A stretch of DNA of 33,133 nt, from positions 1-33,133 of the IMG/VR virus record IMGVR_UViG_3300006893_000016; one strand, given 5' to 3'. Position numbers and translations under genes: made by a program. Source of the DNA: a virus (lineage: Duplodnaviria > Caudoviricetes). Below, piece by piece: positions 14,081-29,171 of the stretch. How positions within the stretch are numbered: the stretch's first letter is position 1; the number at the start of each line of letters is the position of its first letter. The notes under the pieces are model-generated. The model searched no databases and was not told where the DNA came from. It saw only the letters and a program-made list of their open reading frames with translations.

Positions 14081-15604
14081 ATGCAGGCACAAGGACTTAC
14101 GCAAGAAACGCTCGACGCCCTCAAAGCTATGCGGGGCGCGGGCGGCGCGGCCTATAAGGACATTACGACCGCGCTCGGTTACATCTCGTACGATCTGCAG
14201 CCCGTAGTCGATCGCACCTTCCCGAACATCACTCCGTTACGCAATGAAGTTCCACGCGTGAAGGGCAAGGGCGGGAATTCTACTCACTGGAAAGAAGTGT
14301 ACGCCATCAACGCCAACGGTCTTTCCCTTGGCGTTTCGGAACGTAACCGCAACGCGGCGGTCACGACGCAATTGCGCGACCACTTCGCGAAATATGCGGA
14401 GCTGGGCTTCGAAGACTTCGTGACCTGGAAGACTGATCAAGAAGCGCTCGAACTGACTCCGGACGTAAAGTCCATGGCCGTCGAGAATCTTTTGTATGCG
14501 ACGCTGCAAGCCGAAGAGAAAATTCTCCTGTGGGGCAACACTGGCGTTGGACCCAGCGGCAACTTCCCGGCGCAAGGTGGCGGCAACGGCATCGCACTTG
14601 GCATCGCTCCAACTCCGGTAGCGACCCTCGTCGCCGGCGGCGCTATGACCGCACAAGCAACCACCGTGTTCGTGGTTGCGCTCACTCCCGAAGGTTTCTT
14701 CAATTCTTCCATCGCTGGTGGCGTGCCCACTGTCGTCACGCGTGACAACGTAGACGGCACCAGTGACACGTACGGCGGCGGGAGCTCGCAGCTTTCTGCG
14801 GTGTCGAACACCATCACCACTGCCGGCGGCAATCTTTCCATTAGCGCGCATTGTGCGGTTGTGAAGGGTGCTGCAGGTTACGCCTGGTACGTTGGCCTGC
14901 TTGGTAGCGGCGCTGCAGGTGCACATCTTGCCGCGATCACCACCATCAACAGCGTGCTGCTCGTCGCAGATCCACTTGGCACTCAGGTTGCAAGCGTGGC
15001 CTCGGCGGACAATTCCGGAAACGGAATCATCTTCGACGGCTACATTTCGCAAGCGCTCAGCGGCGGCGGATTGTTCGTATCCCAGGCGACCGGGACCGAC
15101 GGCGTTGGTACCCCACTCACCGCAGACGCCTTCGGCAACATCAACGAATTCGAGACTGACTTCCAATATTTCTGGGACAACTACCGCCTGCAGCCCGACG
15201 ACATTTTGATGAGTGGGCAGGAAATTAAAAATGTCAGCAAGAAAATCGTGAACAGCGGCGCATACCGCGTCAATGTGACCGGCGAAGGATCTAAAGGCGA
15301 CCTTTCGGGCGGCAGCTTAGTGCGTAGCTACCTGGGCAAGTTCGCGATGGGCGGCGGTAAAGAAGTAACGCTGACGCTGCACCCGAATATGCCTGCTGGG
15401 ACGATCTTCTACCGCACCAAGAAACTGCCCTATCGCGTGCAGGGTATTGCGAATCTCGCGCAGATCCGCACGCAGCAAGAGTGGCGGCAGGTGGATTGGC
15501 CACCGGTTCATCGCAGCTGGGATTACGGCATCTACGCGAACGAAACGTTCGAGATGCATTTCTCGCCGGCGTTCGGCGTGCGCACCAATATCGCCAACGG
15601 ATAA
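14081..15604 (+). CDS. Major capsid protein with large internal insertion
   Basis: AAGGAG SD; TPLRNEVPRV, EEKILLWG, PDDILMS, LTLHPNMPAGTI; strong codon bias. Confidence 0.88.
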   Translation: MQAQGLTQETLDALKAMRGAGGAAYKDITTALGYISYDLQPVVDRTFPNITPLRNEVPRVKGKGGNSTHWKEVYAINANGLSLGVSERNRNAAVTTQLRDHFAKYAELGFEDFVTWKTDQEALELTPDVKSMAVENLLYATLQAEEKILLWGNTGVGPSGNFPAQGGGNGIALGIAPTPVATLVAGGAMTAQATTVFVVALTPEGFFNSSIAGGVPTVVTRDNVDGTSDTYGGGSSQLSAVSNTITTAGGNLSISAHCAVVKGAAGYAWYVGLLGSGAAGAHLAAITTINSVLLVADPLGTQVASVASADNSGNGIIFDGYISQALSGGGLFVSQATGTDGVGTPLTADAFGNINEFETDFQYFWDNYRLQPDDILMSGQEIKNVSKKIVNSGAYRVNVTGEGSKGDLSGGSLVRSYLGKFAMGGGKEVTLTLHPNMPAGTIFYRTKKLPYRVQGIANLAQIRTQQEWRQVDWPPVHRSWDYGIYANETFEMHFSPAFGVRTNIANG

Positions 15605-15615
15605 AACAGCTTTCC

Positions 15616-15723
15616 GGCGTTATGGCTCTCGTTCTCCTGGGGGAGGGCAGACTTGGCGCCGCGAATTCGACAGAGGGGCTGGCAGAGATCCTGAGTCAAA
15701 GTCAGCCCTTCGATCGAATTTTT
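15616..15723 (+). terminator. Two tandem stem-loops after MCP, second followed by T-run (terminator/stabiliser or ncRNA)
   Basis: GGCGTTA/TGGCGCC + GCTCTC/GAGGGC; AATTCGA/TCGAATT + GAGGGGCTGGC/GTCAGCCCTTC. Confidence 0.55.
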
Positions 15724-15943
15724 AAGAGGAACTCATTTATGCAGGCACATCAAGAGCGAGTCGTTAACGAGAAGAAAGAGTTGGACGAGAAGCGAGAGAA
15801 ACTTGGCACCTTCATCGAAGGTAAGATTTTCCAGACTCTGTCGCCGGAAGAACGTAATCGACTGGAGCGACAGGCGATTGCAATGACGACTTACTCAACG
15901 ATTCTCGGCGAACGCATTGCGGCATTCTCGAATTTTTAAGAGG
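15714..15943 (+). repeat. Exact 16-bp direct repeat TCGAATTTTTAAGAGG (15714-15729, 15928-15943)
   Basis: Direct comparison; brackets ORF 15739-15939. Confidence 0.9.
15739..15939 (+). CDS. crAss001_48-like small helical protein, 66 aa
   Basis: MQAHQERVVNEKKELDEKREKL..FI....F..L...E..RLERQ..AM..YSTILGERIAAF pattern; GAGGA SD. Confidence 0.75.
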   Translation: MQAHQERVVNEKKELDEKREKLGTFIEGKIFQTLSPEERNRLERQAIAMTTYSTILGERIAAFSNF

Positions 15944-18658: not shown

Positions 18659-18751
18659 CACACCCCACGAGTGCTGTGCGGTCCGGGCTGCGTTTCTTTG
18701 GGAGAGGCTACGCAGCCTGGACGCTGCTTCTGCAACCTGGCGGCAAAGCTT

Positions 18752-18964
18752 ATGCCTTTGACGATGGAGCAGATTAAATTCTTGGCGGTTACGGAAGCCA
18801 TGGCTAGAAACAACGGCGACAAGTCGGCGGCGGCAAAGGAACTGGCAATCGGAAGAACGACGCTGTATCGAATTATAGGAATGATTCACAGGAAGGCACG
18901 CATGTCCGAATCACCTGAAGACGAATCGACGAAAGGAAATTCGAAATGCTTCTGCTACTTCTAG
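18752..18964 (+). CDS. Stand-alone Fis-type helix-turn-helix protein
   Basis: AMARNNGDKSAAAKELAIGRTTLYR matches Fis/NtrC C-terminal HTH; start may be 18671. Confidence 0.75.
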   Translation: MPLTMEQIKFLAVTEAMARNNGDKSAAAKELAIGRTTLYRIIGMIHRKARMSESPEDESTKGNSKCFCYF

Positions 18965-22800: not shown

Positions 22801-23005
22801 TGGGGCTGGAGGAGCGGCGGGAGCAGCAGGAAGTTCAGGTGGTAGCGGGGGATTCGGTTCGTCTGTCACGAACAACAAAAATGTCACTCAGCACATTCGC
22901 CCAACGATAGTCGTCAACCATCCTGGTGAGAAGGTGAGCCAGGAAGACATCGAGAAAGCCGTGCTCAAAGGCGTGCGGAGGGGAGCAATTCAGACCTCAT
23001 TCTAA
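19844..23005 (+). CDS. Tape measure protein
   Basis: 1053 aa, Ala/Glu/Lys helical; hydrophobic VIAPVVAAGA-type segment; AMVHKDEIVLP C-terminal motif. Confidence 0.93.
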   Translation: MSDTILELMTRVDVEPVKTAMTEAATAVSNSTSKMKTDMASFNATSMAANEGVVDFMSKLPPAFIKVEAGGVFAFEQIKRRVIEATSEVGALRQEILTTDDTAKLAQLNAQLDQARARMTAARTEMRAMRLEMTETREKADLLGESVGVKIPGALGRMLGQMPQIQSIMNAAFAPIMVLFFVEAIEHAIEGIAKLARAIGGFGEEERKAFESALDHNQKLILSNLELKEKLEAISIIGKEGSTKYAAEAKNAAAAAVDQAAELARVNRELPKMQEQVNRLSLKKKIGLDPLDYAPWDIAFTFIKRGLDNTGEELEAAQAKLRRFNETRDQLEGKLRERPVEAGKAKAEEKVRGGDEAREVQRANVEAQKSLQTEYVNFYEQGLRRMYADDKITLADEVAGEKEAVLARLEIERTYAAQRKQLLAAEAAAHPGKNVQPQVIAVNTQLADAELRTRSEIAAIDQRFDKETEKQRDAVNLATVKAAKSAADSEIAVVEETSRRKFANGQIVLSELTAIEKAAANQRIDEQRAVVQEELRAAEQEPEKKKALIIKLNSDLENLERERITKIDAIDIEAENRKRAILSIEAESAKVHQQSLLEIDRIGIETRANLGLISNSQRLTQLKAITTQEYQLEREAIEKKKSLYAEGTTQFVEAEKELQQINDKYSKQMAEDDAKALKERLAAWEKFDHQIVDSFSGAVGEMLRHQKTFGQAMAAAWNTMVVDFAQAMARKLAQWILTHTLMKVVSQIFHLEELTKQTVATSAETGVVAAGQVAQVAAVATGQTAQTAAVTTGSSARAGVGLLEDIKSIGRAAATAAAHAFKWVMEEVPFPANVALAPVVAAGAFTAVMAFGSIASAAGGMEVTHDQVAALHKDEKVLPAAFSRDLSTAIGGSSSKGIGIPAIAGSLSSLGGGVSQLRSQMSMLQSSSASDSRSSSSSTTNKTVNSHASAAGGMDVTHDQMAMVHKDEIVLPESIAQNFRSMHGAAGAGGAAGAAGSSGGSGGFGSSVTNNKNVTQHIRPTIVVNHPGEKVSQEDIEKAVLKGVRRGAIQTSF

Positions 23006-23730
23006 TGAGTAACTTAGTCTATCCCGGAGATCTGCGCGGCCTGACCTGGACACGCATCAAGACCGCTGAAAACAGCACGGGGCTGCAGCGATCTAGCAGT
23101 GCGGACGAAACGCGTATCGCCAATTATCTGAATCCGATCTGGCATTGGATATTGATGTACAGCGTGCTCTACGATCGGCCAGGACAACTGATTCCCGGCT
23201 ACAGCGTGCCCGACTATCGCTACCTGCAAGGTTTCTTTCTCGCTCGCCAGGGCATGTTCGATGATTTTCTGTTCTTAGATCCCAGTGATTATTCCATTGG
23301 GCCCGCCATACTTACTGGCGGTGGACCGAATCCGCTGGCGCAACTTCAAGTTGTCAACGACGGCGCTGGCAATTACTACAGCCCGATCCAGCGAAACTTT
23401 GGCGGCCTCTTCTATGAAGATGTGACCGATCTGGCGACAGGCATCACGGTATTCGCTAACGAAGCGCTGCAGGCGAATCCAGCGGACTACACCATTCTAG
23501 GTCCGGGCCTCGCGATACCTGGTGCATCGTTCTCCGGCCTCTATCTCAAGTGGACCACTGCACCGGCCACGCCAGTCACCGCACAATTCAATTTCTATTT
23601 CCGCGTGCGGTTTGAAAGTGACACGCAGGATTTCGAGCAGTTACAGCACGACCTTTTTGCCATCGGTGGCGATGGTGGTGTCAAGGGCAGCGGCGAACTG
23701 AAGCTCATGAGTGCTCGGAGGAACGCATGA
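23005..23730 (+). CDS. Distal tail protein (DUF2460-like, GTA-type)
   Basis: LQGFFLARQGMFDDFLFLDPSD, VTAQFNFYFRVRFESD; follows TMP. Confidence 0.85.
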   Translation: MSNLVYPGDLRGLTWTRIKTAENSTGLQRSSSADETRIANYLNPIWHWILMYSVLYDRPGQLIPGYSVPDYRYLQGFFLARQGMFDDFLFLDPSDYSIGPAILTGGGPNPLAQLQVVNDGAGNYYSPIQRNFGGLFYEDVTDLATGITVFANEALQANPADYTILGPGLAIPGASFSGLYLKWTTAPATPVTAQFNFYFRVRFESDTQDFEQLQHDLFAIGGDGGVKGSGELKLMSARRNA

Positions 23731-25532
23731 GACGCGTTGCCCTTTTCGTGGTTATTTTATTTCTCGCGCCGCGCGCCTTCTCCCAAACGATTTCAAACAT
23801 TTCTCCTCCCGCGGCCATCGTCGGTGGCGCGCAGTTTACCCTCACAGTTACTGGAAGCGGCTTTGCCGGCGGTACGACGGTCTTGTGGAACGGCTCGCCA
23901 CTCGCCAGCACTTTCGTCGCTTCGAATGTGATGACTGCGATTGTGCCTGCGGCCAATATCGGTGCGGTAGGCGCTGCGCAGATCACCGTTCTTGTCGGTT
24001 CTACCGTTTCGAACGGGCAAGTTTTTCAGATCCTCTCGCCAATCGGACAAGTGACATCGTGGACGCCAACAATTTTCACTGCTGGCGTCAGTACCAACGT
24101 CACGGTGTACGGAGTGGGATTTACTTCCAGCGCGGTGATTTATTTCGACTGGCTCGCAGTCAGTACGACTTTCGTTTCGTCGAGTCAGTTAAACGGGTCC
24201 GTTCCAAACACGGCCATCGCTACCAGCGGACCGCACTCAATCATCGTCATCAATGGCGCTGTTTCGTCACCGGCCAAGGCTCTTGCAATTTCCCCACGCA
24301 CAGTGGCGTTTCCAAATCAAGTCGTGAGTACCACGAGCTCAGCACAAACCGATACGGTGACAAACATCGGCAGTGCGACGGTCACCTTTTCGAGCTTTAC
24401 GATTGGCGGCGTAAATACTTCCGACTTTGCAATTTCGGCGAATACTTGCGGCGCGACACTGGCAGCTTCCGCGAGTTGCGTAGTCTCTCTGACCTTTACT
24501 CCAAGCAGTACGGGTGCGCGCACCGGCCTTTTGTCGGTGGCCAGCGATGCGGTTGGCAGCCCTATATCCGCCAAACTGACCGGAACTGGTATTGCCGGCT
24601 CAGGCTCTACGGTCAACATCAATCCGCTCGCGCTTAATTTCGGAAACGTAACCTTCACTTCAAATGCCAGCCTCACGTCGGTGGTCACAAACTTCGGCAT
24701 CGCGGGATCTCCGAATTACACAATCACCTCGATGGTCCTTGGTGGGGCAAACTCCGCGGACTTCAATAGCAGCACCAGCACTTGCGCGACGGCAACGCCA
24801 TACGCGCCTGGGGTCGGATGCAACGTCAACGTGGTTTTCACGCCGTCATCGGTGGCGGCCAAAGTCGCCACGCTCACCATCACCGACAACAGCAACACCA
24901 GCCCGGAAGTAATCGCATTGTCGGGGAACGGAGTAGCCCTCGCGCCGGGCGCAAATATTCTGCCCGTGTCGTCAATGGTTTTTGGAAATGTGCAGGTGAG
25001 CACCACGTCGGCGCCTATCACCGTGAACTTATTCAATGGCGGAACTTCCAATCTGTCGATCAGTTCAGTGGCGCTGAGCGGGACCAATTCTGCGGACTTC
25101 ACGCTGATAGGCGGCGGCTGCTCGAGCTCGACGGTCCTCCCTCCTGGCCAGCTTTGCCCGCTTACGGCAACCTTCACGCCATCACTCACGGCCACAGAGT
25201 CTGCCGTGATCACAGTCACCGATAACGCCACAGGAAGCCCGAGAACGGTCGCGCTTCATGGCACCGGCATTTCTACCGCGCATTACATGGCACTCACTTG
25301 GACGGCAAGCAATTCTCCCAGCATTGTGGGCTACAACGTTTATCGCGGTAGCCAGAGCGGCGGACCGTACTCCCTGCTGACGCCTGCTCCCGTCAACGCG
25401 CTGGCATATACCGACAGCGCAGTCATCTCTGGGAGCACTTACTTTTACGTGGTCACTGCGGTGGGCACCAATCCGCCGTACAACCCTGCCGAGAGCCTTA
25501 ATTCGGTTGTGGTCAGTGGGACGATCCCATGA
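23727..25532 (+). CDS. Exported multi-Ig protein: signal peptide, 2 IPT/TIG-like, 3 choice-of-anchor-D/ASH-like domains, C-terminal FN3 lacking strand A
   Basis: MRRVALFVVILFLAPRAFS|Q; FTLTVTGSGF; three FGNV...DF...C....C.V.V.FTPS repeats; LTWTAS...GYNVYR...YTD...YFYVVTAV. Confidence 0.85.
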   Translation: MRRVALFVVILFLAPRAFSQTISNISPPAAIVGGAQFTLTVTGSGFAGGTTVLWNGSPLASTFVASNVMTAIVPAANIGAVGAAQITVLVGSTVSNGQVFQILSPIGQVTSWTPTIFTAGVSTNVTVYGVGFTSSAVIYFDWLAVSTTFVSSSQLNGSVPNTAIATSGPHSIIVINGAVSSPAKALAISPRTVAFPNQVVSTTSSAQTDTVTNIGSATVTFSSFTIGGVNTSDFAISANTCGATLAASASCVVSLTFTPSSTGARTGLLSVASDAVGSPISAKLTGTGIAGSGSTVNINPLALNFGNVTFTSNASLTSVVTNFGIAGSPNYTITSMVLGGANSADFNSSTSTCATATPYAPGVGCNVNVVFTPSSVAAKVATLTITDNSNTSPEVIALSGNGVALAPGANILPVSSMVFGNVQVSTTSAPITVNLFNGGTSNLSISSVALSGTNSADFTLIGGGCSSSTVLPPGQLCPLTATFTPSLTATESAVITVTDNATGSPRTVALHGTGISTAHYMALTWTASNSPSIVGYNVYRGSQSGGPYSLLTPAPVNALAYTDSAVISGSTYFYVVTAVGTNPPYNPAESLNSVVVSGTIP

Positions 25533-27103
25533 TGAAGAGATTTTTTTTATTTCTGGCGATGCTGATGGTCTGCGCGATCGGAGCGCAAGCCACAAATCGC
25601 TTTGTCACCGAGACCGGAGCCAACGCGGGGAGCTGCACAAGTGGCGTAATTTCTCGGGCCACGTTCAATAGCACAACGCTGTCTCCCGACGATGTCGTGC
25701 TGTTTTGCGGAACGATTGCCGGGGAAGTGGACCCGCAGAGCAGTGGCACTTCTGGACATCCCATTGTTCTAAAGTTTGATACCGGCGCGAAGTGGTCTGT
25801 CACTGTTCCTAGTTTCAGCCAGTTCTTATATCTTGCTGGGCTATCCTTTATCACGATAGATGGTGGCACTCCCTGCGGTAAGGCGTCGCTCACTTGCAAC
25901 GGGCAGATCACCTACACACAGATGGGTTCAGCGTTCGGTTCCGGCGACGGTACCCACGTAGCCATCGTCAGTGGGGCGCACGACATCGAGATTAAGAATC
26001 TGGAGTGGGGGCCATTTTATCTGCATACCCCGCAATCCGGGTATCCACCCAACAATTACGATTCGGCCGCGACCATCTACGGCAATAATCCCGGCGCGAA
26101 CATCCACATTCACGATTGCAAATTTCACGACAACGCCTGGACGATCAACCTATTTGGAAGCGCCGGCACCAGCCAGAATTACGAAATAGACCATAACTAC
26201 TTTCAGCACACCTCGCATGGCGTGAACCTTGGAACCTCAGGCGCGGTATCTTTCGGCGGTCTGAAATTCCACGATAATTTTATTATGGACCCGGTGAACT
26301 GGGACCAGACCAACGGCAGCTTCCACCACGACGGGCTGCAAATCACCTGCACTACTACGCCCTGCACAGTGACGAATATACAAATCTACAACAACACCTT
26401 TGGTGGTGACTGGGGATGCACCAATACCTCGCCCATTTTTCTGGAAACGCATGAAGGCTCTTCTCTTCTAGTCACGAATGTCACAGTGTTCAACAATCTC
26501 TTTCAGAACGCGAACACCAGCAGTTGCGGCTGGGCCAACGGCGTCAATCTGCTCGGGCATTCAGGCGTCGCGGCCTACAACAACACCATAATTTGCGCGT
26601 CTCCTTTTGGCGGTCTCGGACTGCAATTTGGAGGTTCGGGCGCGGATTCAAGAAACAACATCGTCACCGGCTGCCAACTAGTAGCGGGAACCGGCAACGA
26701 ACCCACCACCATCGGAACTCTGAATTACAACCTATACGCCAACTGGATTATGGGCGGCGGCGGCAACGCCTTCTCGTGGAACGGTACAAGCACAAGCGGT
26801 GCTGGCCTCGCCTCGCAATTAACAAGTTGGAAAGCACTCATAGGTGGTGGCGTTGAAGCCAATTCCATCACCGCTACCGGTGCTGGATTGAACTCCGATG
26901 GCACGCTGGCATCCAATTCCCCGGCAATCAATAGCGGCACTAACCTTACCTCGCTGGGTATCGCCGCGCTCGACTTTGATAAAAACGGCAACCCGCGGCC
27001 GAATCCCGGAAACTGGGATATGGGCGCATTCAACAACGGCGCGGCGCCGCCTCCTCCGGTGCAGCCTGCTCCACCAACAGGACTCACCGCGGTGCCACAT
27101 TGA
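25529..27103 (+). CDS. Exported right-handed beta-helix (pectin-lyase-like) protein with C-terminal Pro linker + PPTGLTAVPH
   Basis: Signal peptide ...IGAQA|T; Asn-ladder repeats (IYNNTF, VFNNLF, AYNNTI); SPAINSG...DKNGNPRP...WDMGAF. Confidence 0.85.
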   Translation: MMKRFFLFLAMLMVCAIGAQATNRFVTETGANAGSCTSGVISRATFNSTTLSPDDVVLFCGTIAGEVDPQSSGTSGHPIVLKFDTGAKWSVTVPSFSQFLYLAGLSFITIDGGTPCGKASLTCNGQITYTQMGSAFGSGDGTHVAIVSGAHDIEIKNLEWGPFYLHTPQSGYPPNNYDSAATIYGNNPGANIHIHDCKFHDNAWTINLFGSAGTSQNYEIDHNYFQHTSHGVNLGTSGAVSFGGLKFHDNFIMDPVNWDQTNGSFHHDGLQITCTTTPCTVTNIQIYNNTFGGDWGCTNTSPIFLETHEGSSLLVTNVTVFNNLFQNANTSSCGWANGVNLLGHSGVAAYNNTIICASPFGGLGLQFGGSGADSRNNIVTGCQLVAGTGNEPTTIGTLNYNLYANWIMGGGGNAFSWNGTSTSGAGLASQLTSWKALIGGGVEANSITATGAGLNSDGTLASNSPAINSGTNLTSLGIAALDFDKNGNPRPNPGNWDMGAFNNGAAPPPPVQPAPPTGLTAVPH

Positions 27104-28251
27104 AAACTAAACTCCTTCTCATCGTCGTACTAGCTCTCGCATTGGCTGCTGGAGCGCGTGCGCAGGCGCTCATTTCCTCTGGCCCGATAACGCTCTCGGG
27201 GCAGAACGGTACCATCATCCAAGGCTTACACATAACCAATCCCACGGGTGCGTGTGTAACCCTGACCAGCTCCACGAATATCATCATCCGCAGGTCGGAG
27301 ATCGGGCCATGTAACGGAAACGCTATAAGGATCAGCGGTGGAAGCGGCAACGCAGTCTATGACAACTACATTCATCCAGAGACACTGAACGGCTCCGGAT
27401 GCTGTGACCACGACGACGGGATTTTTGCTTCGGGAACGTCCAGTCTTACGATTCAGGGCAACGTCATTGCTTATAGCGAGTCCAACATTGAAGTTACGGG
27501 AAGCAGTACCGTCATCGCCACGGGAAACTTTCTACTAAACCCCAGAGGACCATTTCCCAGAGGACAGAACTTTCAGGCGTACACCGGCAATAGCAACATC
27601 ACCGTTCAAGACAACTATGCTCTGTCGAGTACAGACACGAGCAAGTACACCTTCGCTGAAAATCAGGAAGACTCCATCAATTTTGGTTTGACCAACGGAA
27701 TTATTGCGCAGAGAAATTACGTCACCGGTGGGCACAGTCTTTCGGGCTGCGGGATAATCGCGGACGACGGAGCCAACAGCGCCCAATTTAGAAGCAACCG
27801 CCTTCTTGACACTGGCCAGTGTGGTGTCAGCATAGCGGATGGAACCAACCAAATCGTTGACAGCAACAAGGTCTATAACACAACCCCCGTGGTGGGGGGT
27901 GGCAACACCGCCATCATGACCTGGAAGCAGTACACCAATCCCTGTGGTCCGACAACGGTTTCCAACAATATAGCAGACGAAATCAAGCCTGACGGCTCGC
28001 ATTCGGGCTTTTGGGACGGCGGTGGGTGCTCTACCACGCTGAGTGGCAACACCTTCAGCCAGCCAGCAGATGCTTTACTGACTCCGATCGGCACCGTCTT
28101 TGCACCTCCGTTAATTCCGCCGATACCAAAGGATTGCGTGGCGGTTTCTCCCTATACAAACAACACGACCACGTCTTCCTGCTCCAACTTCACTCCTCCT
28201 TCAACGACGCGCCCCAACCCACCTACAGGCCTGACCGCGGTGCCACATTGA
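27071..28251 (+). repeat. 33-bp direct repeat at gene junctions (27071-27103, 28219-28251)
   Basis: 30/33 identical, exact 18-bp core ACCGCGGTGCCACATTGA, mismatches synonymous. Confidence 0.92.
27100..28251 (+). CDS. Second exported beta-helix protein with C-terminal PPTGLTAVPH
   Basis: TTG start overlapping TGA; signal peptide ...AGARA|Q; repeats VYDNYI, IQGNVI, VQDNYA, VSNNIA; many Cys. Confidence 0.85.
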   Translation: MKTKLLLIVVLALALAAGARAQALISSGPITLSGQNGTIIQGLHITNPTGACVTLTSSTNIIIRRSEIGPCNGNAIRISGGSGNAVYDNYIHPETLNGSGCCDHDDGIFASGTSSLTIQGNVIAYSESNIEVTGSSTVIATGNFLLNPRGPFPRGQNFQAYTGNSNITVQDNYALSSTDTSKYTFAENQEDSINFGLTNGIIAQRNYVTGGHSLSGCGIIADDGANSAQFRSNRLLDTGQCGVSIADGTNQIVDSNKVYNTTPVVGGGNTAIMTWKQYTNPCGPTTVSNNIADEIKPDGSHSGFWDGGGCSTTLSGNTFSQPADALLTPIGTVFAPPLIPPIPKDCVAVSPYTNNTTTSSCSNFTPPSTTRPNPPTGLTAVPH

Positions 28252-29171
28252 GAACCATGATCGGCGGCGACGGCTTAGACACAACTGCGGCCACGAAAGC
28301 GTACCTCCTTTCGCACAATCAGTTATTCCTCGCAAATCTTTTTATGATCGGCGACCTTGAGGATCCCGCCGCGCAGCTTATTTGCGACTGGGAAGCACCG
28401 CTCTCCTGGCCGGTGTATGGAACATTCAAGCCAGGCGTCACGAAGCGCGGCCAGATCACTTCGGAAATTGGACTTAAAGTCGCCGCACTGGATCTTGAGT
28501 GGAGCCCTCCAGTCACAGCGTTTACCACGGACGTCGCATCAGCGAATCCTTACCAGCTCGCGCAACTGGGTTTCTATGACAACAAGATTGTGCGTATGTG
28601 GCGAACGATCATGCCCACGCCTGGAGATGCGAATACTTATGGCGCATGCATCTTGTTTGGTGGACGCGTCGCAGACTGCACGGTAGAGCGCGGGAAGATC
28701 AAATTCACGGTCGACAGTTTCCTTGACGTAGTGAATCAGCTCGTTCCGCCGAACGTCATCGAAGTAACGAACACACTCGCGAATTATAAAGGCGCGACTC
28801 CGGTACTAGCTGACGGTGAGACCGTCGTCCCCACGTTCACTATTGCCGCAGGCAGTAACGCGACAAACCTTCTCGGCATCTGTACCGCGCCGACCGCCAA
28901 TAAAATCTACGGCGACAACAAATTGCAGTTTGGATACGTGGTTTTCACTTCCGGAGCGCTTGCAGGATTCTGGAGCGCGATCGCCACCAGTAATAATTTC
29001 CAGCCCATACCGGGCGGTCCGCACTACAACCAGATCATCGTGTACAGCCCGTTTCCCTGGGATCCAACGCCAGGCGATACCTTTTACGTTTCCACACACT
29101 TTCCGATCGAGCAGGCCGATGGCAGCTATGTTGGATTTCCTTTCGTGCCCGCTCCGGAGACGGCTTTATGA
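28248..29171 (+). CDS. Tail tip hub protein (DUF2163/BR0599-like)
   Basis: TTG 28248 overlaps upstream TGA; LFGGRVAD, PTPGDTFYV, YVGFPFVPAPETAL. Confidence 0.8.
   Translation: MRTMIGGDGLDTTAATKAYLLSHNQLFLANLFMIGDLEDPAAQLICDWEAPLSWPVYGTFKPGVTKRGQITSEIGLKVAALDLEWSPPVTAFTTDVASANPYQLAQLGFYDNKIVRMWRTIMPTPGDANTYGACILFGGRVADCTVERGKIKFTVDSFLDVVNQLVPPNVIEVTNTLANYKGATPVLADGETVVPTFTIAAGSNATNLLGICTAPTANKIYGDNKLQFGYVVFTSGALAGFWSAIATSNNFQPIPGGPHYNQIIVYSPFPWDPTPGDTFYVSTHFPIEQADGSYVGFPFVPAPETAL

Follow-up and report, generated by a model that had tools for sequence, protein, structure and literature searches.

Between the gene for a DUF2460 distal tail protein (Dit) and that for a baseplate hub, the 33,133-base virus record IMGVR_UViG_3300006893_000016 (a tailed phage; "the window" below is this whole stretch, to which gene positions refer) carries three genes that encode a "stalk" of Ig-like domains and two "cargos" (Table 1). 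The stalk ends in an FN3 domain that lacks its strand A (the "socket"); both cargos end in the same decapeptide, PPTGLTAVPH (the "plug"), which resembles an FN3 strand A without its domain. The junctions of this cassette are 4-nt overlaps of stop and start codons (ATGA, ATGA, TTGA). Of the 12 late genes checked, these three alone begin with a hydrophobic stretch resembling a signal peptide, with peak Kyte-Doolittle values of 2.96-3.59 compared with at most 1.9 for the other late genes (a call made on hydrophobicity rather than by a dedicated signal-peptide predictor); their products contain 6-12 Cys each. An initial annotation of this DNA had pointed to the overlaps, to signal peptides on all three proteins and to a peptide completing the stalk's FN3 domain in trans. 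The argument developed here is that stalk and cargos are likely to form an exported tag-and-anchor module, in which the plug is predicted to dock as strand A into the C-terminal FN3 domain of the stalk.

Table 1. Features of the window (all on the + strand) and permuted proteins of other phage loci
Feature	Position	Length (aa)	Description
DUF2460 distal tail protein (Dit)	23005..23730 (+)		flanking gene, outside the module
Stalk	23727..25532 (+)	601	signal-peptide-like start, 2 choice-of-anchor Z/IPT, 3 choice-of-anchor D (ASH-like Ig), C-terminal FN3 socket
Socket	25281..25529 (+)		FN3 without strand A, residues 519-601, class-marking His at W-6
Cargo 1	25529..27103 (+)	524	signal-peptide-like start, predicted Pel9A-like beta-helix, choice-of-anchor Q, Pro-rich linker, plug
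Plug 1	27071..27100 (+)		PPTGLTAVPH, orphan FN3 strand A, C-terminus of cargo 1
Cargo 2	27100..28251 (+)	383	signal-peptide-like start, Cys-rich right-handed beta-helix, linker, plug
Plug 2	28219..28248 (+)		PPTGLTAVPH, C-terminus of cargo 2
Baseplate hub-like protein	28257..29171 (+)		flanking gene, outside the module; true start 28257
Permuted FN3 protein	L243:7998-8282		strands B-G, then plug
Permuted FN3 protein	L245:7998-8282		strands B-G, then plug
Permuted FN3 protein	L247:2833-3105		strands B-G, then plug
Permuted FN3 protein	L212:825-1100		strands B-G, then plug
Permuted FN3 protein	L217:8118-8396		strands B-G, then plug
Permuted FN3 protein	L244:12596-12940		strands B-G, then plug

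The socket begins at H519 (CAT at 25281), just four residues past the last strand of the third choice-of-anchor D domain. In the AlphaFold2 model of the stalk (62 sequences, mean pLDDT (predicted local distance difference test) 89.4) the D-domain strand 506-515 leads directly to strand B (521-524) and no strand A lies between, and a strand-A profile applied upstream of the socket returns a score of -13.6. The other hallmarks of the fold are in place: strands B, C, E, F and G, including the Trp of B and the Tyr motifs of C and F. What sets the socket apart from a seven-stranded FN3 domain is the absence of a same-chain strand A ahead of strand B. The Pfam fn3 model does not match it; the nearest solved structure by sequence is 3mpc, a bacterial FN3 domain from Clostridium thermocellum (E 8.6e-9), and the alignment takes in 3mpc from residue 17 on, nothing in the socket corresponding to what precedes. 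(A fold search with the full stalk retrieved only generic Ig arrays, e.g., ciliary ASH proteins.) Supply of strand A in cis by the upstream linker, which the annotation had named among the findings that would overturn its proposal, is rejected by the AlphaFold2 model. Fusion of plug to socket by read-through or frameshift is rejected for the window as well, because the socket gene precedes the plug genes.

The cargos have nothing in common but their ends: the best BLAST alignment between them (E 0.10) covers the tail alone. When the strand-A profile (trained on a set that included both window plugs) is run over the 163 closed open reading frames (ORFs) of at least 60 amino acids (aa) in the window, only the two cargos score (33 bits; next, -2.1). 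The two plug copies are taken to share a common origin because they differ at three synonymous sites, with no amino-acid change, and match in their final 18 nucleotides; this pattern suggests, weakly, constraint at the protein level. That both cargos are of beta-helix type, as first proposed, also stands: cargo 2 (ORF 27100) matches Pfam Beta_helix, while cargo 1 (ORF 25529), which has a choice-of-anchor Q domain and no Pfam match, has Pel9A-like beta-helix proteins as its structural neighbours (TM (template modelling) score about 0.75, between predicted models). Fold and gene neighbourhood are the basis on which both cargos may be supposed to be depolymerases or glycan-binding proteins. The plug is found in 10 of 11 matches of the cargo 1 family and is optional in the cargo 2 family, where 28 of 120 listed homologues carry it (an initial regular expression undercounted these as 8 of 120): it is an optional add-on across unrelated cargo families. 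Plug sequences have no PEP motif, transmembrane helix or basic tail.

Do the two halves fit? The 120 listed FN3-region homologues (of 350 found; these and the cargo homologues include the window's own three proteins) yield 172 related domains; a motif rule assigns 74 of them to a class with strand A in the same chain and 98 to a class lacking it. Members of the strand-less class are C-terminal in 87 of 98 cases, and 89% of them start with a His six positions ahead of the conserved Trp (W-6). In complete domains the spacing from the strand-A Leu to that Trp is 13 in 50 of 74; the 131 cargo homologues have 38 plugs, of which 36 end exactly at Leu+5. It follows from these three regularities that plug and socket together span the whole domain minus one residue of the A-B turn: sockets begin two positions past the end of the plug. 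The socket keeps the hydrophobic residues of strands B, F and G of complete domains. Both halves also depart from canonical FN3--the plug in its V followed by H/Q/N, the socket in its His and I/V-P--and these departures would lie near the same end of the domain, a structural link that can be proposed from the alignments. An acceptor without one strand and a separate chain bearing a peptide that matches in sequence and register are both present, as donor-strand docking demands, and binding of plug to socket is predicted. (Phage-type sockets, those of the window and of the related phage L256, carry in their F-G loop an NPPY-like insertion (in the window, 25470-25484, residues 582-586), and phage-type plugs end in Pro-His, unlike most chromosomal pairs; insertion and ending could possibly constitute a specificity code.)

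The close chromosomal relatives of the cassette are nearly all from Acidobacteriota, and for that reason the phage host is presumably acidobacterial. Chromosomal sockets were collected from 79 loci in Terriglobia and relatives. A plug pattern run across the phylum matched 39 of 201 genomes, mostly by chance: on reading, only the plugs of G001 and G174 were real, and both belong to the six genomes with socket-profile matches of at least 85 bits. Presence of plugs throughout the phylum is accordingly rejected, and the module is held to be lineage-restricted. Within a sample of 121 genomes of G001's family, sockets (E 1e-20 or better) occur in 61 and strict plugs in 29; the strict plugs, 38 in all, were read by eye from 82 listed 39-nt matches, about a quarter of them being confirmed as the ends of long ORFs. 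Sockets are found in 27 of the 29 genomes with a plug and in 34 of the 92 others (Fisher 6e-8), or in 24 of 26 and 32 of 90 (2e-7) when the centre genome and four unpublished ones (G210, G222, G233, G314) are left out, in counts that ignore kinship and genome size. The two halves are also linked: of the 36 plugs that share a genome with a socket, 18 are no more than 50 kb from a listed one, where chance would give at most 2.6 (35 socket matches fall outside the listing, and plugs of one locus are not independent). The co-occurrence of the two termini in other genomes, on which the trans-completion proposal had been staked, is thus borne out. Where the two are linked, the region is a Wzx/Wzy exopolysaccharide cluster, which has genes of the flippase, polymerase-like, chain-length, tyrosine-kinase and sugar-transferase types. 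One of the two plug genomes at first counted as lacking a socket, G221, proved to carry a divergent one immediately upstream of two plug cargos (L411), so that the gene layout of the phage--socket, plug cargo, plug cargo--recurs on a chromosome.

(Two technical notes. Relaxed DNA patterns used alone performed at chance level, and fetched DNA was scored with the profile instead. Most of the Acidobacteria searched also contain another FN3 protein, conserved and about 400 aa long, that has its strand A in cis (L375, L377-L380, L408); it matches the socket profile weakly and must be excluded from surveys.)

The profile also allowed a prospective search, in which DNA around sockets was fetched and all ORF ends in it were scored. 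In five of five socket genomes without a strict plug (four taken blind; the stretch from G002 was picked from a pattern match), plug-ended long ORFs lie 8-56 kb from a socket; their scores are 14-23 bits, while the next ORF reaches at most 1.4. Ten exopolysaccharide loci from nine socket-negative genomes served as the control for a tag common to such loci in general (546 kb, 1,481 ORF ends) and gave a single plug, in G223. The difference (Fisher 0.003; 0.007 for the blind genomes alone) comes from stretches of unequal extent, 778 kb around sockets versus 546 kb in the control, with only 16 kb from G231, and, like the co-occurrence counts, takes no account of kinship.

The socket lacks a strand, both cargos bear one tag, the halves agree in register, and they co-occur and are linked; from these observations the following can be proposed. 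Stalk and cargos would be exported, presumably by the Sec pathway; the C-terminal peptide of a cargo would then insert as the missing strand A into the stalk's FN3 domain, with no need of a chaperone, and the cargo would be held non-covalently at what should be the far end of the stalk (in FN3 domains strand A starts at the end opposite to the start of strand B). Each socket would take one cargo, the two cargos being interchangeable. In the Wzx/Wzy loci of some Acidobacteria, to which it is native, the module most likely displays beta-helix proteins that bind or modify polysaccharide, on stalks or on lipoprotein anchors. Some sockets (L046, L072, L183, L185) have, by eye, a lipoprotein-like start or a C-terminal membrane helix and would supply such anchors. 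(Small lipoprotein-like proteins with little beyond a socket are encoded convergently beside stalk genes at L046:10251-10598, L072:10260-10613, L080:10241-10624 and L083:3944-4354, and are candidate membrane anchors.) The module is mainly chromosomal, a feature of acidobacterial exopolysaccharide loci, and the phage probably captured it; what the phage carries would most likely be a cassette that acts on the envelope or capsule of its host, and its socket might accept plug-tagged host proteins too. Of the earlier picture of docking in a phage tail operon, the trans-completion is supported and the tail as its place of invention is not.

Several observations, besides the limits attached to the counts above, weigh against this reading. 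The window's stalk has no visible membrane anchor. A plug lies within 10 kb of the socket at only 3 of the 79 chromosomal socket loci, and the draft genomes G207 and G223 have a plug and no detected socket. Among phages, stalks without an adjoining plug are found in the related phage loci L181 (alone in the Dit-hub slot) and L257 (outside the Dit-hub context), and among 28 distinct viral C-terminal sockets (from 79 viral loci, four of the 28 looking like divergent complete repeats) a plug-ended gene is present in the fetched flanks of 5, of which one is the window phage and two are permuted small proteins, discussed below. Because phage sockets usually have no plug of their own nearby, the case for an obligate phage-encoded pair is weakened, and phage sockets may serve to capture host cargos. 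(Records of cultured phages gave only 2 weak matches.)

If the socket is so often found alone, might it be a self-sufficient six-stranded (or self-pairing) FN3 domain, and the plug the partnerless remnant of a truncated one? Sockets do outnumber detected plugs, often with none within 10 kb, and the socket of the window is in parts modelled confidently without strand A. A remnant, however, would not stop at the same position in 36 of 38 instances across unrelated families; genomes that had seemed to lack plugs turned out on closer search to have them; the socket retains the hydrophobic B, F and G residues of complete domains; and the window copies differ at synonymous sites only (to which ribosome-binding constraints could contribute). 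This explanation is improbable, and slightly more so is the one that makes the plug a C-terminal sorting or processing signal of the PEP-CTERM kind, read by other machinery, with the strand-less FN3 domain simply co-inherited in exopolysaccharide islands. In its favour, the loci contain genes whose best NCBIfam matches are to XrtA/PEP-CTERM-system families (all below cut-offs), the plug of cargo 1 follows a choice-of-anchor Q domain, where anchors usually sit, and there are the two genomes with a plug and no detected socket. That explanation, which we judge marginally the least probable of those considered, does not account for why the plug aligns position by position with FN3 strand A and stops where the socket starts, why it has no transmembrane segment or basic tail, why it also occurs in permuted proteins that are 90-94 aa long and have no signal peptide, or why the exopolysaccharide loci of socket-negative relatives have it in just one genome of nine.

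A third alternative accepts the docking and concerns only where it takes place: stalk and cargos would be exported and, once lysis had set them free, attach to the baseplate, serving there as interchangeable heads with a receptor-binding or depolymerase function. We consider this unlikely, albeit a good deal less so than the two preceding explanations. The cassette is translationally coupled to the Dit gene and occupies the position between Dit and hub in the window phage, L256 and L181 (in L256 the slot holds two sockets and one plug cargo that is unrelated to cargo 1), and the baseplate of phage Tuc2009 gains an accessory carbohydrate-binding protein by sheet completion (PMC4742702). Set against this are the signal-peptide-like starts and 6-12 Cys of the three proteins, the former unlike the nine other late proteins checked; the predominance of chromosomal exopolysaccharide-locus proteins among the homologues; and the stalk of L257, which is outside the Dit-hub context. 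Phage tails assemble in the cytoplasm, and the signal-peptide-like starts make assembly there onto the tail unlikely; a role in the tail is doubtful. Those starts and the chromosomal origin tip the balance towards the host envelope or capsule, and away from the tail, as the place of action, while the fixed position beside Dit keeps a post-lysis role in the virion in contention.

Permuted phage proteins, in which strands B-G are followed by a plug (eight by score, several more by eye; examples in Table 1), point to a further use of the same joint. The small ones have about 90-95 aa and no signal peptide. In the monomer model of a 94-aa example the core is FN3 and the last 14 residues are confident yet unpaired; 3mpc is the fold match of a permuted relative (TM score 0.71). 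Since the link between strand G and the plug should, from FN3 geometry, be too short to fold back, such proteins would be predicted to chain head to tail, and they are candidates for self-polymerising fibre or decoration proteins. L239:4786-5970 and L244:7998-9440 place an ice-binding-like domain (PF11999) between an N-terminal strand-less FN3 and a plug-like C-terminus, and could form chains of ice-binding domains. (An alternative permutation, strands F-G, then B-E, then plug, is encoded at L239:7806-8198.) A bolder generalization, to which we would assign something short of an even chance, is that one split FN3 joint provides a chaperone-free construction kit: 1) socket-only anchors and stalks; 2) socket-plug extenders, some with a cargo such as an ice-binding domain in the middle, that polymerise head to tail into fibres; 3) plug-only tips. 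Acidobacteria would decorate their capsules with it, and phages would build appendages of their own or redirect the tagged proteins of the host.

How does all this relate to known systems? Donor-strand complementation builds pili of the chaperone-usher type, the Pam pili of candidate phyla radiation (CPR) bacteria (PMC13278184) and archaeal AbpX fibres (bioRxiv 10.64898/2026.01.04.697558). In these systems, as is proposed for the module, an incomplete beta-sandwich is completed by a strand of another chain, and the roles of anchor, shaft and tip arise from that joint; the module differs in its FN3 fold, in having as donor a free C-terminal decapeptide on unrelated cargos, in the lack of an adjoining chaperone or usher gene, and in a main use that looks like tagging rather than pilus-making. 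It differs from chaperone-usher systems specifically in that its neighbours are tail genes, the missing strand is A (not G) and the donor is C-terminal (not N-terminal). In Tuc2009, a C-terminal extension completes the sheet of a titin-like domain between BppU and BppA, attaching a carbohydrate-binding module (PMC4742702): sheet completion across chains in a phage tail by a C-terminal extension is the likeness. There, however, it is the scaffold that gives, contributing a 25-residue hairpin, and the cargo that receives, in one dedicated pair for which no signal peptides are described; here the direction would be reversed, each cargo donating one strand only, and a common tag serves many cargo families. 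The trans-complemented Ig3 domain of obscurin-like-1, completed by a linker of myomesin, shows such a joint to be mechanically stable (about 135 pN; PMC5222588); it is a eukaryotic Ig domain with an internal linker as donor, again in one specific pair. The module works like these joints and belongs to none of their classes.

Cohesin-dockerin pairs, PEP-CTERM and the C-terminal domain of type IX secretion are portable C-terminal modules that attach diverse carbohydrate-active proteins to a surface scaffold. Like PEP-CTERM, the module is tied to exopolysaccharide loci; unlike these pairs and sorting tags, it has no folded dockerin, calcium-binding repeats or transmembrane segment, and the model needs no transpeptidase. 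A survey of openly accessible literature, by title and the start of the abstract, turned up no description of a bacterial or phage tag in which a portable peptide supplies strand A of FN3. The module is real and lineage-restricted, and is likely a new form of donor-strand docking. Should binding hold, it would be a general route of surface display in the abundant Acidobacteria of soil and peat, comparable in role to cohesin-dockerin or PEP-CTERM with a different chemistry. The absence of a recognised anchor from the ends of choice-of-anchor D and Q proteins in these genomes would then be accounted for; the ten-residue tag could serve as a simple marker for cargos acting on acidobacterial exopolysaccharide; and plug and socket would amount to a natural peptide-tag/catcher pair, the permuted forms suggesting a new class of self-assembling FN3 fibres.

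Some features of the surroundings remain to be recorded. No promoter or terminator signal sets the cassette apart within the window (1 promoter-like site against 3.7 expected; terminator-like sites are not interpretable). A search of sequencing runs with the window listed one DNA dataset and, among those listed, no RNA dataset. Elsewhere, the late regions of several among L007-L010, L181, L194, L211 and L243 have many signal-peptide-like ORFs, which is unusual for virion modules. The window otherwise encodes a terminase, a portal, head-tail connectors and a tape-measure-sized ORF, with an NlpC/P60-like protein and, cut short by the end of the record, a tail-tip ORF. A Fis-family helix-turn-helix ORF (18671-18964) lies within the tail region, and a crAss001_48-like ORF (15481-15939) follows the putative capsid gene.

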